Shown here piece by piece: positions 1-25,632 of a DNA stretch of 25,632 bases. The position numbers were made by a program, and so were the translations under genes. The notes beneath the pieces were generated by a model. It was not told the origin of the DNA. It saw only the letters and a list, made by a program, of their open reading frames with translations, and made no database searches. Location of the stretch: the IMG/VR virus record IMGVR_UViG_3300033153_015493; one strand, given 5' to 3'. Numbering within the stretch: position 1 is the first letter of the stretch; every line of letters starts with the position of its first letter. Source of the DNA: a virus.

Positions 1-35
1 TCCAGTACCCACCTTATGTGTTCTGATTCATTCAT
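1..35 (-). CDS. N-terminal part (MNESEHIRWVL...) of a small ORF running off the left end; joins in frame to 25482-25632 if circular
   Basis: ATG at 35 lies just inside the end of the RHH gene. 35 nt plus 13 nt from the right end give GAC TGG GGT GCT AAA, then ATG 25619, without a stop. Confidence 0.5.
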   Translation of the reverse strand, partial: MNESEHIRWVL

Positions 36-4778: not shown

Positions 4779-7700
4779 ATGAGAAAGAGTGCCTTTTTAC
4801 TCATGTTTGCAGTTTTGTTAGTTTTAGTTAGCTCTGGCTCTGTTTCTGCAACTTGGTGGAATGAATCTTATACAAAGAAGATACTAATTAATTGCACAAA
4901 CCTTGATGACAATACTCCTATTGTTATAAATGGTTCATCTGGTTTTACAATAGATGGAAAAAAGCAAATAGTCTGGACTTACTGCTCTGGAACAGGAACA
5001 GCAGTTTATTATAATGATTATTCTGACTATGTTGTTGCTAATGATACAACACAGCTACCTATGGAAGTAGAGTTTGGCAATGGGACTTCTTATAATCCTA
5101 CCCAAGTTTGGGATAGTAATTATTTAGCTGTTTACCATATGACAGATACAACTACTTCAACTATTACAGATTCTACTTCAAATGATTATGATTGCACAAA
5201 AAAAGGTGCTAATGAACCAATAGAATCAACAGGGGAAATAGGTCAGGCACAAGATTTTGATGGAAGTGATGATTATATTGCTTGTGGGGATATTAATGAA
5301 TTAGATACCGCAAATGAGATTACTTATGAAACATACTCTAAATTAGATGATTTTGATACAACCTATCCACGATTAATATGCAAAGCTTCTGGAACAGGGG
5401 ATGCCCAAAGAAATGATATACTATTTAACTCACCAGATAGAATAGAATTGGGTCTTGGGGGCTCGAGGATAGCTATTGGTGAGGCAGTAACAACAGGAAC
5501 TTGGTATTATACAGCAGGAACAGCAAAAATGGATATTGGTGCTGGTTCTGATAAACTGGAAATATTCAAGAATGGGTATTCTATTGGAAGTGATAATACT
5601 CTCACTTTAGCACCAGTAGATATGGGAACTCATCAAGTATATATTGGCTCTTTTGACCCAGGGGTCTTGGACACAAGAGAATGGGATGGTCTTATAGACG
5701 AAGTGAGAATATCTGATATAGTTCGTTCAGATTCTTATTTTAATCAAACGTATGAAAATATAATAGGAACAGCTGGTTATGGTAATTTATTAGCAGAAGA
5801 ATCAGCACCTTCAGCAGATGCACCAATAATAACAGCACATACAACTTCTCCTTCAACAGTTTACACAAACACAGACTTTAAATTTAATATGACTGCAACT
5901 GATACTGATAATGCAACCTTTACTGGGTGGGTTCAGTTCTATGTAAATGATTCTGCAACTGGTTCAGTTCAAACTAACTCTATGAATAATAACACAAATA
6001 CTCTTATTGGAACATTGGCAAATGCAAACTTCATAAAAGGTTCTGAACTGATAGCTGAATACTGGGCCAGTGATGGAGAGAACAATTCAACAAAGGCAAA
6101 CCAAAGCACTGTAACTGTAAGCAATACTGCTCCTGTTTTTAATCCTGCTCTGGCAAACCAAAATGCTTATTCTGATATTGAATTTACTTATGACATCAAT
6201 GCAACGGACTTGGATTCAGATACACTAACTTATTATGATAATACAACTTTGTTTAATATAAATTCAGAAACAGGAATAATAACAGATACTCCAACAGAAA
6301 GTGAGAAAGGAACTTACACAATTTTAATAACAATAGGCGATGGAACAGACAATACAACTTCTACTTTTGATTATACTATAATTGACAAGACCCCACCAGC
6401 AATAACATGGATACAACAGCCAGACTTAAACCTTACAGTTGAAACAAATCCAACTTATTTATATAATATATCAGATACAAGCGGAGTGAACTGGACTTCT
6501 GTTATCTTTTATCACGGACTGAATGACACTTATTTAAACAGCATGAACTGGAGCTACAGATATCCTGCAAGTGCAAAGCAGCCTGACAGATTGAGAGCTT
6601 GCAATAGGAATAAATCACTGCTTTTAATAGAAGATAACGCAATTAAATTATACGAAGGCGACATAGCAAGCTATGGAGGGCATTTGTATGGGGCTTGTCT
6701 AAAGCCAGTTGTTTACTCTTCAGGCTCTGATTGGGTTGCATTCAATATGACCTTTGACTATCATCATTTGATGGAGAGTCATATCCCTGTTGACAAGACT
6801 GCTTTGCATAATGAAGTAAAAACAGACCAATATATCAATATTTACAAGAGCCATCCTGCAATAGTCCAATTGGAGACATTCCCTACAGAAATAAACAGGA
6901 CAGTTCATATTAATTTAAACATAGATGACAAGAATGGAACTTATCCTTTACTTATTTATGGATGCAACAATTCAGTTAATCCTTACACAGTGGATTATAC
7001 TTCTGATTCAAACTGTGCTTTCTATGGGACAAGAACAGACTTCGACACAAAGGACAGAATATCAAACCAGTCAAGTTATGTGCATTTTCTTTCTGGAATA
7101 GATGAAAATGGAAAGATTGGCGGAACAAGTTTAACTCCTTCTGATACAATGTTTATGTATTTAGATTCAGATGCACCAAATGTGGCAAAAGGATTTAAGC
7201 TTTACTATGCAGATGATGTAGTTCCAGACAATACTAATTTCAATGAAACTTATTATTTGCATACCTATTCTCCTTCTTCATGGACTAACAGAAGCGAAAC
7301 TCCTGATGTGCAGTTAGAGGTAACAGCAGATGAGTTTGACATCCAATATTATGTTTTTGCCTGCGACAACAATTCAAACTGCGTAAACTTTACAATGCAG
7401 GCAGATGCTTTGGGTGAAAGACCAAATGAAGCTCCAAATGCACCTTATCTTATTCAGCCTTTAGTAAATTACAATATTACAGGAACTTATAATATTACTT
7501 GGCTTGATGGAATAGACCCAGAAGGAGACCCTTTTAACATAACTTTGGTTTTAATAAACCACACAGACAGTTCAGAATATGTCTTGACAAGCACAATTTC
7601 AAAAGGGACTGAGTATTACTCTTGGGACACTACTGCTTACATAGATTTAGATTCTTACCAGATAGTAATTTATGCAACTGATTCAGGCGGATTAAAAAGC

Positions 7701-11941: not shown

Positions 11942-12073
11942 TCACCAATCATCTACTAAAATAAAATATCTAAATGCAAACCAGATACAAAAAATAATAA
12001 AAACAAAAGAAATATACCAGTATGTTTTTGATAAATTAAATAATAATGCAAGTTCTTCAAACATTTTAATCAT
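11942..12073 (-). CDS. 43-aa single-TM peptide (not in ORF track)
   Basis: MIKMFEELALLFNLSKTYWYISFVFIIFCIWFAFRYFILVDDW*, start overlaps the end of the recombinase gene. Confidence 0.5.
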   Translation of the reverse strand: MIKMFEELALLFNLSKTYWYISFVFIIFCIWFAFRYFILVDDW

Positions 12074-12743
12074 GTATTAATGGCTTTTTTTCTATTTCTT
12101 CCCTTAAATCTTCAGATGACAAGTCAGAATACCACTCTAAGATTGTTTTAATTGTGTCACCTGTATTCTGCTGAACAAACTTAATATCTCGGCCTGCTTT
12201 TCTGCTTAACCTGATGAAAGTATGCCTCAGCCAATGAGAGCCAACTATGTGAGCATAAGGAAAATCTATCTTTTTACACCATCTTTTTAATATCCTGTTA
12301 GCTGTCTTTTCAGAAAAAGGAAACAATCTCTTATCTTTGATGCCTTCTATCTGCCTCTGCTTGAGCCACATCTTCAAGCTAGACCTTACAAACTCCGGCC
12401 AATATACAAATCTCCATTTGTCTTTCTTATGATCATAGGTGTATGTCCTGTTCTCTTTCCAGTCAATATGAACAATTTCTGTATGCACAACATCAGAAAC
12501 CCTTAAGCCTGTCTGGCTATGATACAAGATATATGTCCTGTCTCTTACACTATCAATAGTCTGATATAATAATTTTAAATATTGCTGTGGAATATACTTG
12601 TCCCCTTTGCTGATTTTATTAGACACCACTAAAGATTTTTCTTGTTTTGTATCATTTTTTTGCATCATTTTCATATACATTGTCCGATTCACTGGTAGAA
12701 ACGGACACCCTATTTTGCATTCAATCGCCAAGATTCTTGCCAA
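12066..12743 (-). CDS. Short tyrosine recombinase (catalytic domain only); true start uncertain
   Basis: R in QTGLRVSDV, K in DHKKDK, HxxR in SHWLRHTF, Tyr in ILEWYSDL. The usual LGH position reads TGD. Confidence 0.85.
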   Translation of the reverse strand: MARILAIECKIGCPFLPVNRTMYMKMMQKNDTKQEKSLVVSNKISKGDKYIPQQYLKLLYQTIDSVRDRTYILYHSQTGLRVSDVVHTEIVHIDWKENRTYTYDHKKDKWRFVYWPEFVRSSLKMWLKQRQIEGIKDKRLFPFSEKTANRILKRWCKKIDFPYAHIVGSHWLRHTFIRLSRKAGRDIKFVQQNTGDTIKTILEWYSDLSSEDLREEIEKKPLIHD

Positions 12744-19443: not shown

Positions 19444-19554
19444 AAAATAAGAGTCAGAACATTGAAAGCAAATGAATAGGGTAAAAACATTAGCCCCCAC
19501 AACACGATTTTAGGAGAGTGTTGCGTAAATCTTTCCTATTCTGACTCTTATTTT
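19444..19554. repeat. Perfect 16-bp inverted repeat enclosing nested stems
   Basis: AAAATAAGAGTCAGAA (19444-19459) / TTCTGACTCTTATTTT (19539-19554). Inner GAATAGG/CCTATTC and CAACAC/GTGTTG. Confidence 0.85.
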
Positions 19555-21700: not shown

Positions 21701-21797
21701 CCACACTTGCCACACTTGCCACCCCACCTTACCCCTATAGAAAACATTTTCTTTTATATAAGGGTGAAAAGGGGTGGCAGCTGTGCCATCTGTGGCA
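21701..21797. repeat. Iteron-like and inverted repeat cluster, candidate replication origin
   Basis: CCACACTTG x2 in tandem (21701-21718). TGCCACCCC/GGGGTGGCA (21717-25/21771-79) around an imperfect inner IR. Four TGCCAC/GTGGCA hexamers. Abuts the helicase stop. Confidence 0.7.
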
Positions 21798-24164: not shown

Positions 24165-24766
24165 CTATTATTTTCATAAGTTTGATAAAATATCTTGGGC
24201 TTTGATTCAATACCATCTAAACAAGAAGATAACAATATTCCTATACCAGGTTCATCTTTTCCTCTTTCTTGTCTCCATATACTCCATAACTGTCTTAGAA
24301 ATGATTTGGATCTATTATACTCAATTGGTGGTTCATTTTTACATTTTGGTAATATTTCTTTACGCCATTTTTCATTATGAGGGCTTTCTTTTATCTCATT
24401 TTCAAATAAATGACCATTTACAGAATATTTTGTTGCAACTATAAAAAAATTAATATTAATTTCTTTCCCTTCAATATAGTATTTTGTTTTTCCTTCTTTG
24501 TATTCTTTTTGATATTTAATTATCTTTGAAGCATCATAAATGTTTTTATTAGTTATTCCAGATTTTATTTCAATAGCTCCATACTTATGTAACATTTGAG
24601 AATATATAATCATGTCTGGTTTTTTCCTTGATTCACCTTGTGTCTTAAATATAATTTGGTTATTTAATTCCTTTATTTTTCTATTGTGCCATATAGGAAT
24701 ATTATTAGTTTGTAACCAACTATTTAATATGATTTCTGTTTCTGTTTCAGGTTTTATTATTATCAC
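24137..24766 (-). CDS. PD-(D/E)xK family nuclease
   Basis: E...RKKPDMIIY...YGAIEIKSG pattern. Confidence 0.75.
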   Translation of the reverse strand: MIIIKPETETEIILNSWLQTNNIPIWHNRKIKELNNQIIFKTQGESRKKPDMIIYSQMLHKYGAIEIKSGITNKNIYDASKIIKYQKEYKEGKTKYYIEGKEININFFIVATKYSVNGHLFENEIKESPHNEKWRKEILPKCKNEPPIEYNRSKSFLRQLWSIWRQERGKDEPGIGILLSSCLDGIESKPKIFYQTYENNRWNVRWRKI

Positions 24767-24950
24767 CCCTCTTTTCGTATATTAAAGAAATCAAGTTGCA
24801 GTCAATAGTTACATTATTGCCATACTTATCAACAATAGAGAATACATGGCCTTCAAACTCAGGCATAGTAAATGTGAATTTAAAATTATTCTGGAGAACT
24901 ATTAAAACCTTTTTCCCAATATATTGTTTAACTTCTGTTTCCCAACTCAA
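24747..24950 (-). CDS. 67-aa protein with possible Sm/LSm-like fold
   Basis: YIGKKVLIVLQNNFKFT...IVDKYGNNVTIDCNLISLIYE matches the Sm1/Sm2 strand pattern by eye. Confidence 0.55.
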   Translation of the reverse strand: MSWETEVKQYIGKKVLIVLQNNFKFTFTMPEFEGHVFSIVDKYGNNVTIDCNLISLIYEKRGDNNKT

Positions 24951-24960
24951 GGAATAATTT

Positions 24961-24990
24961 GTAAAGCATAACTACTATTTATACTTTTCT
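24961..24990 (-). promoter_or_regulatory. BRE-TATA promoter sharing an 18-nt element with the RHH promoter
   Basis: AAAAG-TATAAATA-GTAGTTATGCTTTAC. 24961-24978 matches 171-188 at 17/18 nt. Confidence 0.65.
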
Positions 24991-25029: not shown

Positions 25030-25221
25030 CTAATCTCGCTTGGCTTTACGCTTAGTATTCTTGACCACATTTTTCAGTTCCTCTTCAAGTTCTCTTATTT
25101 TTCCCATTAGGTATGCAATTAAATCCTTGTCGCTCTTGCATCTCAGGTTTGCACCAACCAGCAGGTCAGCCATTTCTTCAGGCGTAAACTTTTCAAGTAT
25201 TTCTTCTTTTGTTATTTTCAT
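25030..25221 (-). CDS. 63-aa coiled-coil hypothetical protein
   Basis: Plausible helical, charged composition, co-oriented. Confidence 0.6.
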   Translation of the reverse strand: MKITKEEILEKFTPEEMADLLVGANLRCKSDKDLIAYLMGKIRELEEELKNVVKNTKRKAKRD

Positions 25222-25266
25222 TTTATTTTGTTGAATGTTTGCTGTTCAAATTTAGTTTTAATTGAA

Positions 25267-25474
25267 TTTAACCGCAATTATGTTTAGTGAGGTTTTCTAT
25301 ATATTCAATTTTGATAAAATTGTATCCATAATAACTCTATTAATCTTCACTAAATTTAAAAGCTTATCTTTTTGTTCTTTAGATAACTTTGATTTTCTTA
25401 TGGATACAATAAACTCTTTTTCTTCTTTATTTAACTTCATTTTAAAACCTCATTGAACATAATTAGCAGTTAAA
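25267..25474. repeat. Imperfect 30/31-bp inverted repeat bracketing a small ORF
   Basis: 25267-25296 TTTAACCGCAATTATGTTTAGTGAGGTTTT versus 25444-25474 AAAACCTCATTGAACATAATTAGCAGTTAAA: 27 matches, 3 transitions, one 1-nt gap. Confidence 0.9.
25297..25440 (-). CDS. 47-aa basic helical protein inside the inverted repeat (not in ORF track)
   Basis: MKLNKEEKEFIVSIRKSKLSKEQKDKLLNLVKINRVIMDTILSKLNI*, GAGGT RBS located inside the right repeat arm. Confidence 0.65.
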   Translation of the reverse strand: MKLNKEEKEFIVSIRKSKLSKEQKDKLLNLVKINRVIMDTILSKLNI

Positions 25475-25481
25475 CCTAATA

Positions 25482-25632
25482 TTACTTTTCAGTGGTTTCC
25501 TTTCTTGTAGCCTTAAATTGAATGTCATACAGCCCTGACTTCAGGCACTTGTATAATGTGAATGTCCTGCCGTCAAACAATTTGGCATTTTCCAGCACAA
25601 TTTCGAAGCTGTTGGGCATTTTAGCACCCCAG
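25482..25632 (-). CDS. Small hypothetical protein; 45 aa from ATG 25619, or 61 aa if joined to 1-35
   Basis: MPNSFEIVLENAKLFDGRTFTLYKCLKSGLYDIQFKATRKETTEK*. Frame is open to the window end. Confidence 0.6.
   Translation of the reverse strand, partial: WGAKMPNSFEIVLENAKLFDGRTFTLYKCLKSGLYDIQFKATRKETTEK

Follow-up and report, generated by a model that had tools for sequence, protein, structure and literature searches.

An inverted repeat around a small viral gene as one copy of a recurrent leader/anti-leader pair proposed to act in cis on mRNA

The repeat at ORF47 and its occurrence around other genes

The stretch of DNA under study, referred to as the window, is the complete IMG/VR virus record IMGVR_UViG_3300033153_015493 (25,632 nt), a virus- or plasmid-like element which encodes a D5-type primase-helicase, a ParB-domain protein, a 225-amino-acid (aa) tyrosine recombinase and a 2124-aa protein. 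Close to its right end an open reading frame (ORF) of 47 aa (ORF47, 25297-25440) is located on the minus strand, which is the strand of every small gene around the locus, and is bracketed by the two arms of an inverted repeat. The 5' arm in the direction of the mRNA (25444..25474, minus strand), in the following called the leader, ends 3 nt before the ORF47 ATG, and the 3' arm (25267..25296, minus strand), called the anti-leader, starts at the last base of the ORF47 stop codon, i.e., the G of GAAAACC. Within the leader a conserved core (ATTATGTTCAATGAGGTTTT, plus-strand positions 25444-25463) contains the sequence GAGGT (plus-strand 25447-25451) and is continued by an outer extension up to 25474 (minus strand) which is specific to the window. 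The anti-leader comprises the core (G)AAAACCTCACTAAACATAAT, which is the reverse complement of plus-strand positions 25277-25296(97), and an outer extension to 25267. As GGAGG, GAGGT or AGGTG was found at Shine-Dalgarno distance in about half of the window genes, GAGGT is a plausible ribosome-binding site (RBS) here.

Local alignment of 25267-25296 (30 nt) with the reverse complement of 25444-25474 (31 nt) yielded 27 matches, three mismatches and one 1-nt gap, whereby a gapless core of 21 nt is identical at 19 of 21 positions. The first-pass annotation of this DNA had given the match as 27 of 30; the repeat itself is real, but the figure is right only when the gap is allowed. The further layout described there, i.e., a left arm abutting the ORF47 stop codon, a right arm carrying GAGGT and lying 3 nt from the ATG, one inward-facing GAGGT per arm, and two wobble-compatible (G-U) substitutions on the plus strand as compared to one on the mRNA strand, was found on the sequence as claimed, with GAGGTTTT being readable inward from both arms. 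In the 25.6-kb window the arm core occurs exactly twice when up to three mismatches are allowed, and it was found in none of 100 dinucleotide shuffles; the 400-nt stretch containing the arms has the top self-complementarity score of the window (49 as compared to at most 42 in 15 Markov shuffles). Likewise, a 221-nt stretch folds better than its shuffles (z -5.5 for the sense and z -7.1 for the antisense strand), a signal of which a part is supplied by a 16-nt inner inverted repeat within ORF47 (25319..25410, minus strand; arms 25319-25334 and 25395-25410). This inner repeat was considered as a part of the element and ruled out, being lineage-restricted, located outside the conserved element and missing in the ORF47 homologues of contigs L031, L032, L033, L034 and L036.

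Scanning of Joint Genome Institute (JGI) metagenome contigs with a two-arm pattern, followed by local analysis, identified the arm pair in L009 (two cassettes, L009a and L009b), L010 and L013, while the cassette of L031 was found via ORF47 homologues and that of L024 (L024c) via inspection of an IMG/VR virus. With these six further cassettes on five contigs, the arm pair (20-22 nt) is found around no fewer than four unrelated cargo families. It had been proposed earlier to look for different cargo between the same arms; the outcome is positive, yet it is read here as pointing to RNA pairing and not to recombination. The gene-proximal arm always consists of ATTATGTTCAAT and an inner half, followed by ATG within a few nt, and the distal arm always consists of the inner complement and ACTAAACATAAT, whereby the outer half ATTATGTTCAAT / ACTAAACATAAT is invariant. 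The same two central bases differ between the arms (CAA vs TAG) in all seven pairs and also in the leaderless L001 and L027. An identical leader core was found 2-4 nt before the starts of genes in L009 (twice), L010, L013, L012, L023 and L024, the leader preceding at least eight different genes in total at a distance of 1-5 nt from the ATG. On the other side, the anti-leader core is identical and carries the same two substitutions in L001, L009 (twice), L010 and L013; the anti-leaders of L031, L024c and L027 carry these two substitutions together with a variant inner half.

Apart from the pair ORF47/L031, the cargo proteins have nothing in common but the arm-encoded peptide and the tail following it, and a borderline match between the L009a and L031 proteins (33% over 82 aa, E 1e-9) may largely reflect this common tail. 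The distal arm of L009a, L009b, L010 and L031 is read in frame as ENLTKHN (LDLTKHN in L031), after which a Cys-rich Zn-ribbon-like tail follows, while the cargo ORF stops right after the arm in L013, inside the arm in L024c and at the first base of the arm in the window. The arms also occur on their own: the outer half ATTATGTTCAAT alone was found ahead of other genes in L012, L023, L024a, L026 and L047, which argues for a function of its own, and copies of the anti-leader without leader are present in L001 and L027.

IMG/VR scans with a 20-mer and a 17-mer returned only L024 beyond chance matches, and a scan of cellular genome contigs with the arm sequence gave nine single matches, mostly due to chance, of which only L023 is real. 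The 20-mer occurs by chance in bacterial rpoC (L016, L018), where it codes for IMFNEVL, so single cellular matches are not to be over-read; one leader-bearing contig sits in the bin of a bacterial metagenome-assembled genome. Further sequences are common to these elements. A hairpin-forming AGCAGTTCTAAAAAAGACTGCT (SSSKKDC) opens the Cys-rich Zn-ribbon-like tails of L009:819-1103(-), L031:1138-1410 and L001:816-1019; it occurs with and without a preceding anti-leader, and its reverse complement resembles the hairpin upstream of leaders. Further intergenic motifs, for example CATAATTGCG(A/G)TT...AATTAAAACATT and GCG(A/G)TTAAATTCAAT, were identified at L001:541-622 and 770-815, L005:~400-460 and L023:~6250-6290(-). 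Their recurrence suggests that these mobile elements may share a vocabulary of regulatory sequences.

Complementarity of the arms, predicted folding and interpretation

The inner half GAGGTTTT(C) / (G)AAAACCTC is common to five cassettes, and the two remaining ones deviate from it on both sides. In L031 the inner half GAGGTCAAG / CTTGACCTC replaces the usual GAGGTTTTC / GAAAACCTC, which amounts to four consecutive two-sided changes, and alongside these nucleotide changes the arm-encoded dipeptide EN became LD. As the dipeptide changes together with the nucleotides, the constraint is suggested to act on pairing and not on the peptide. The inner half of L024c, AGTCAAAACC / GGTTTTGACT, differs at ten positions from the canonical one, lacks the Shine-Dalgarno sequence and is perfectly complementary, for which the chance expectation is ~4^-10. 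The virus genome G001 contains, besides L024c, two canonical leaders and another copy of the outer half, and it has three different inner halves. For this reason the inner half is not considered to be the binding site of a common factor or protein, and each anti-leader matches its own leader only. In the leaderless L027, a synonymous change in the anti-leader would break pairing to GAGG. The sole constant property of the inner half is the match to its own partner. The central mismatch is fixed in all pairs, and the roles named here for it are proposals: it may moderate the stability of the helix, keep the T-K codons, or ensure that the inverted copy does not serve as leader for the opposite strand.

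These data bear on the idea that the arms are two convergent copies of one regulatory unit (a hairpin plus promoter, operator or leader), whereby the downstream copy would drive an antisense RNA across the cargo or bind the same regulator and the pairing would be incidental. That such a unit works on its own is indicated by the outer half preceding other genes alone, and the arms of L031 and L009a each possess an outer local hairpin together with the common outer extension TTTTTTA(G)AACTGC. Furthermore, the helix is more regular on the antisense strand, and conserved regulatory sequences ahead of diverse small genes are known from archaeal viruses (PMC11065993) and phages (PMC3203893, PMC2839356). 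A common trans factor, however, does not predict inner halves that vary within one genome yet match their partner, and due to the fixed CAA/TAG difference the downstream copy departs from the leader in every case. Moreover, on the opposite strand the downstream copy precedes neither a start codon nor an ORF, the distance between the arms (119-225 bp) is without helical phasing, and in four cassettes the downstream copy lies within coding sequence. The convergent-copy explanation is regarded as unlikely, albeit as the least unlikely of the rivals.

The position of the arms relative to the gene is likewise constant. The distance between the end of the helix and the AUG is 1-4 nt throughout the seven cassettes, and the cargo ORF extends to the distal arm in each of them, its end being located at the arm (-3), inside it (+12), just after it (+21) or beyond; as the ORF runs up to or through the arm, a translating ribosome would always reach it. 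The arm-to-arm distance ranges from 119 to 225 nt without helical phasing, and DNA looping between the arms was rejected for this reason. For five cassettes a minimum free energy structure was computed, and in all of them it pairs the arms. The energies of the arm duplex are about -17 to -21 kcal/mol. Partition function calculations with the six GAGGT cassettes (L024c was not folded) gave an unpaired probability of the RBS of 0.00 when the 3' arm is present and of 0.17-0.66 for RNA ending ahead of this arm; the in silico values for the Shine-Dalgarno sequence of ORF47 in the window are 0.00 for the full-length and 0.65 for the truncated RNA. Structure internal to the cargo was significant only in the window and is without conservation in homologues. 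Other assignments were tried and rejected: the internal loop fits neither a bulge-helix-bulge intron nor a K-turn, and the leader's own ATG is not the true start, being in frame with the main ATG in only six of nine cases and opening a short upstream ORF in the window. A search with the Rfam 15 covariance models yielded no match at E<=1 on L009, L010, L013, L031 and L001, nor at the window locus.

The same geometry was compared with that of a DNA inversion switch (inverton), in which a recombinase, e.g., the 225-aa tyrosine recombinase of the Phage_integrase family encoded at 12066-12743, would flip the segment between the arms and thereby uncouple the ORF from its start signals. Inverted repeats of 20-30 bp located 100-190 bp apart correspond to those of invertible promoters and intragenic invertons (PMC10028968), genes of the Phage_integrase family were identified in the window, L024 and L036, and the arms have sharp outer edges which are conserved across elements. 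Read from their sequence, however, the arms (20-31 nt) are without an internal dyad of the kind that characterises the core sites of tyrosine or serine recombinases, the central CAA vs TAG difference present in all eight anti-leaders would block or mark strand exchange, and inner halves that vary between cassettes cannot be a recombinase-binding sequence. In addition, the assemblies of the seven cassettes and of all contigs of the window lineage agree in their 'on' orientation, a flip could do no more than turn the gene off since the antisense of the cargo is noncoding, and an inversion mechanism does not call for the strict spacing of 1-4 nt to the AUG. An inverton is thus considered rather improbable.

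Based on these findings, the repeat is interpreted as one copy of a recurrent, conserved leader/anti-leader pair which acts in cis on the mRNA and rides on a small inserted gene module, an interpretation to which we give roughly even credence. The fold-back model is the best supported one because the arms recur around unrelated cargo, covary in two blocks, keep their position towards the AUG and are predicted to occlude the RBS. The 5' arm would serve as a translation leader composed of ATTATGTTCAAT and a variable inner half, usually with a GAGGT Shine-Dalgarno sequence, 1-4 nt before the AUG, and the 3' arm, located 120-225 nt downstream, as its inverted complement. Within the transcript both are predicted to pair in an 8-bp helix which is separated by a fixed 3x3 internal loop (CAA/CUA) from a second helix of 8-10 bp, and this second helix would bury the ribosome-binding region. 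According to this proposal, the start region of the nascent mRNA would be exposed until the distal arm is transcribed and buried afterwards, except that a ribosome translating or terminating on the cargo ORF would hold the distal arm single-stranded. Expression would then be transient or self-sustaining, the kinetic part of this proposal being the more conjectural one. The conserved outer half may have a role of its own, as promoter-proximal element, 5' end or factor site, and the distal arm may be an add-on for a subset of genes. That pairing takes place in RNA rather than in DNA, and how the lock is opened, we infer from the sequences. A fold-back mRNA hiding its own RBS had already been put forward in the first-pass annotation; this idea is strengthened by the recurrence of the arms, the two compensatory blocks, the constant AUG position and the predicted occlusion, while its likening to type I toxins does not hold and the arm described there as a 3' untranslated region is coding in four of the other cassettes.

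Several points weigh against this interpretation. The antisense strand would form a continuous helix including G-U pairs, while the sense helix is weakened by two central mismatches, and no conserved promoter box was seen at a fixed distance upstream of the leaders. No RNA run was among those listed for the locus, and the inclusion of the 5' arm in the mRNA is presumed. Should the transcription start be located within or past the leader, the lock would affect read-through RNA only, as is the case for IS10. The compensatory blocks could in principle stem from templated repair of a quasi-palindrome without any selection. Moreover, L001 and L027 have an anti-leader without leader and several genes have a leader without anti-leader, i.e., the arms have an independent life, and since the L024c arm is without a Shine-Dalgarno sequence, a lock in this cassette must work by general occlusion of the start region.

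Going further, and tentatively, the pair may represent an undescribed class of portable cis-regulatory RNA lock, made of a conserved outer helix and loop and a cassette-specific inner helix, which travels in company with exchangeable modules (small genes or N-terminal parts) between viruses and plasmids of uncultivated origin and limits translation to nascent or actively translated transcripts, whereby the outer helix and loop are perhaps read by a dedicated RNA-binding protein or nuclease; we hold this wider proposal to be possible, yet doubtful. If true, it would describe a modular expression lock for the accessory genes of mobile elements, provide a sequence handle for locating such genes in viral dark matter, and constitute a compact natural part showing how moron-type insertions avoid mistimed expression.

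ORF47 and the module that carries it

An exhaustive HMMER search of 1.84 billion cluster representatives identified 11 relatives of ORF47 at E<=1e-3, namely a 98% identical twin (P0001) and ten proteins with identities of 45-63% (P0014-P0023), of which P0023 is a Zn-ribbon fusion. Conserved columns of this family are K5, E6, E9, I11, S17, K24, L27, K32, N34, R35 and M38, and ORF47 is on this basis judged to be a genuine gene and a member of a small family. A word-index protein search with ORF47 or the L010 protein returned near-identical sequences only (for ORF47 just the 98% twin), and neither Pfam nor PHROGs gave any match for ORF47 and the other cargo proteins. AlphaFold2 modelling from the family alignment predicted a two-helix hairpin (predicted local distance difference test score, pLDDT, 93.7), for which a Foldseek search against the PDB found nothing under E=1. 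The protein is hydrophilic and basic (grand average of hydropathy, GRAVY, -0.37; pI 10), its highest 15-residue Kyte-Doolittle window reaches 1.04, and hydropathy analysis revealed no membrane-like segment. As a predicted soluble, basic helical hairpin, it differs from the small hydrophobic membrane-active toxins of the hok/Sok or aapA/IsoA type, and the earlier analogy with type I toxins therefore fails at the level of the protein.

Within the family, the genes of the window and L031 possess both arms, that of L001 has the 3' arm alone and that of L033 has decayed arms, while those of L032 and L034-L036 are armless and use an ordinary GGAGG RBS, which identifies gene and arms as separable modules. 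One armless member, P0014 (96 aa), is encoded directly downstream of a 275-aa tyrosine integrase on a 16-kb Logan contig (L036:1656-2800).

Comparison with close relatives revealed the extent of the insertion. Blastn alignments showed L004 and L006, which are 84-90% identical over the neighbouring genes, to be without window positions ~25494..25225. The module missing there (25225..25494, minus strand; ~270 nt) comprises a new C-terminus of the upstream ORF, the leader, ORF47, the anti-leader and a 42-nt tail (25225..25266, minus strand) which travels with ORF47 and the 3' arm and ends just ahead of the ATG of the next gene. This downstream gene (63 aa, 25030..25221, minus strand) is conserved in relatives with and without the module. 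The upstream 45-aa ORF (25482..25619, minus strand) overlaps the 63-aa gene in L004 (ATGA) and is fused to it in frame in L006. L001 belongs to a different element and has only 25440..25225 in common with the window (98%), i.e., ORF47, the 3' arm and the 42-nt tail; its homology begins exactly at the ORF47 ATG, where another gene overlaps, and the leader is missing. The right edge of the module is thus reproducible at ~25225, 42 nt past the 3' arm, whereas its left edge differs between L001 and L004/L006 and never coincides with an arm. Five DNA sequencing runs contain the locus, of which X1, X2, X3 and X5 were examined as assembled Logan contigs: X1 contains the same empty junction (with a loose end at 25510), X2 a different gene at the module junction, starting MRKLTKK, and X3 arm-only matches. 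By all appearances, ORF47 is a recently acquired, self-contained module that was inserted at this site. The junction of the upstream ORF and the 63-aa gene (~25222-25510) presents itself as a hotspot, being occupied by an ATGA overlap (L004:3526-3730), an in-frame 97-aa fusion (L006:730-900), the ORF47 module or the X2 gene.

The presence/absence polymorphism together with inverted repeats around a small gene may call to mind a miniature transposon or excisable cassette with the arms as terminal inverted repeats. However, the edges of the indel towards L004 and L006 (~25494 and ~25225) reach 21 and ~42 nt past the arms, the comparison with both revealed no target-site duplication, and the L001 copy has one arm only. 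Since the module edges never coincide with the arms and no target duplication was found, excision or transposition at the arms is disfavoured. The internal sequences are, in addition, mostly unrelated between copies (only ORF47 and L031, at most also L009a, belong to one family), and neither a third arm copy nor an attC-like R/L box is present in the window, which renders this explanation very improbable indeed. An integron gene cassette (attC) was rejected as well, as the arms bracket the ORF instead of following it and contain no RYYYAAC/GTTRRRY core sites. The first-pass annotation had suggested looking for an empty site in related genomes; such sites do exist (L004, L006, X1), but their edges are not at the arms. 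Its alternative model, in which the tyrosine recombinase would flip or excise a cassette at the arms, finds no support in view of these off-arm edges, the one-armed L001 copy, the missing internal dyad, the differing arm centres and the single orientation in assemblies.

Exchange of cargo between identical flanks also fits mosaic-boundary linkers without any pairing function, which would act as landing pads for the swapping of N-terminal modules, their complementarity being a frozen accident of an ancestral inverted duplication. The similarity between the L001 3' gene and L009a begins within 3-4 nt of the outer edge of the arm, the module was gained or lost between close relatives at a hotspot where run X2 has another gene, and the arrangement is akin to the PeSL-mediated shuffling of T4-type phages (PMC2839356, PMC4122927). 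Linkers, however, leave the complementarity restored after inner-half changes, twice independently, unaccounted for, and likewise the constant helix end beside the AUG; they are deemed an improbable explanation, on a par with the inverton.

With regard to the element as a whole, contig L002 (97-98.5% identical) connects the end of the window to its start with 64 extra nt in between (L002:2745-2808), from which it follows that the element is circular or circularly permuted and that the record is short of these 64 nt. They complete a 36-aa ORF (MNESEHIRWVLELCNQEGFKSPAELTREYNIEVLGC) ending TAAAATG; window positions 1-35 and 25482-25632 are not directly joinable in frame. Blastn of the locus against phage records gave zero matches, IMG/VR scans with the primase-helicase protein and with a 21-mer found nothing, and tblastn with the primase-helicase returned only distant (<34%) matches from bacterial phages. 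Three further repeats of the window were noted. A weaker inverted repeat of similar layout (24865-24891 / 24952-24978; 27 nt, 74%) has one arm just upstream of the TTG start of a 67-aa gene (24747-24950, minus strand) and the other ~60 nt inside it. Directly after the primase-helicase gene, an imperfect palindrome (21701-21795; 44-nt arms, 75%, 7 nt apart) with repeated CCACACTTG / TGCCAC motifs has the second-highest self-complementarity of the window and is a candidate origin. A perfect 16-bp inverted repeat with 79 nt between its arms (19444-19554) is intergenic and unrelated to the ORF47 arms.

Comparison with known systems

Fold-back pairing protects the transposases of IS10 and IS50 from outside transcription, whereby a start-proximal inverted repeat occludes the RBS in long or read-through transcripts, and in the leader of the MS2 maturation gene delayed folding limits translation to nascent chains. 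In these cases the complementary segments are near the 5' end and element-specific; in the cassettes described here the partner follows 120-225 nt further on, where the first coding module ends, and many genes are served by the same arms.

In hok and related type I toxin mRNAs, fold-back inhibition (tac/fbi) renders the full-length RNA inert (PMC9841398). As in hok, long-range 5'-3' pairing within one mRNA would hide the Shine-Dalgarno sequence and leave shorter or nascent RNA translatable, which is documented there (PMC9841398) and predicted here. The closed fold of hok, which is stabilised by the tac/fbi stem, has a separate upstream box (ucb) paired to the mok Shine-Dalgarno sequence (PMC9841398), whereas here the 3' arm would pair with the Shine-Dalgarno region directly. 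Unlike in hok, the cargo does not consist of a hydrophobic toxin, coding sequence frequently makes up the 3' arm, and an antisense RNA gene is not evident; moreover, structure and gene evolve together in hok, while here the arms are conserved and the cargo is interchangeable.

Conserved leaders ahead of unrelated genes are known from Cluster K mycobacteriophages, where small non-structural genes unrelated to one another have the asymmetric, RBS-containing SAS and ESAS sequences, conserved among related phages, 3-7 bp ahead of their start codons (PMC3203893). The resemblance, an RBS-containing conserved leader before unrelated genes, is a functional one only, as the SAS consensus GGGATAGGAGCCC is unrelated to the leader sequence (PMC3203893). 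The inverted repeats of ESAS are located upstream, 4-13 bp apart, and a downstream complementary copy was not described for SAS/ESAS (PMC3203893). In the PeSL cassettes of T4-type phages, a stem-loop with an expression signal flanks ORFan genes in plastic regions and marks gene gain and loss (PMC2839356, PMC4122927); PeSLs are recombining direct repeats, whereas the present pair is inverted with maintained complementarity. Invertons likewise possess short inverted repeats 100-200 bp apart, one of them intragenic (PMC10028968), but the arms described here occur in a single orientation in assemblies, differ in their centres and are without recombinase-site symmetry. Early genes of related archaeal viruses, finally, have a near-identical BRE/TATA promoter with a repressor site ahead of many poorly conserved small genes (PMC11065993). 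Unlike this promoter, the conserved element reported here abuts the start codon and has a downstream complementary partner.

The hiding of an RBS by long-range pairing is a known principle, and its known cases (hok, the IS10 transposase and the MS2 maturation gene) are each tied to one gene. Here, metagenomes from sediment, vents and groundwater contain the same 20-nt arms, nucleotide for nucleotide, around genes that are exchanged, with complementarity being regained when the inner half changes, and it is this joining of a conserved RBS leader to a covarying downstream complement around interchangeable genes which sets the pair apart from every one of the systems compared.

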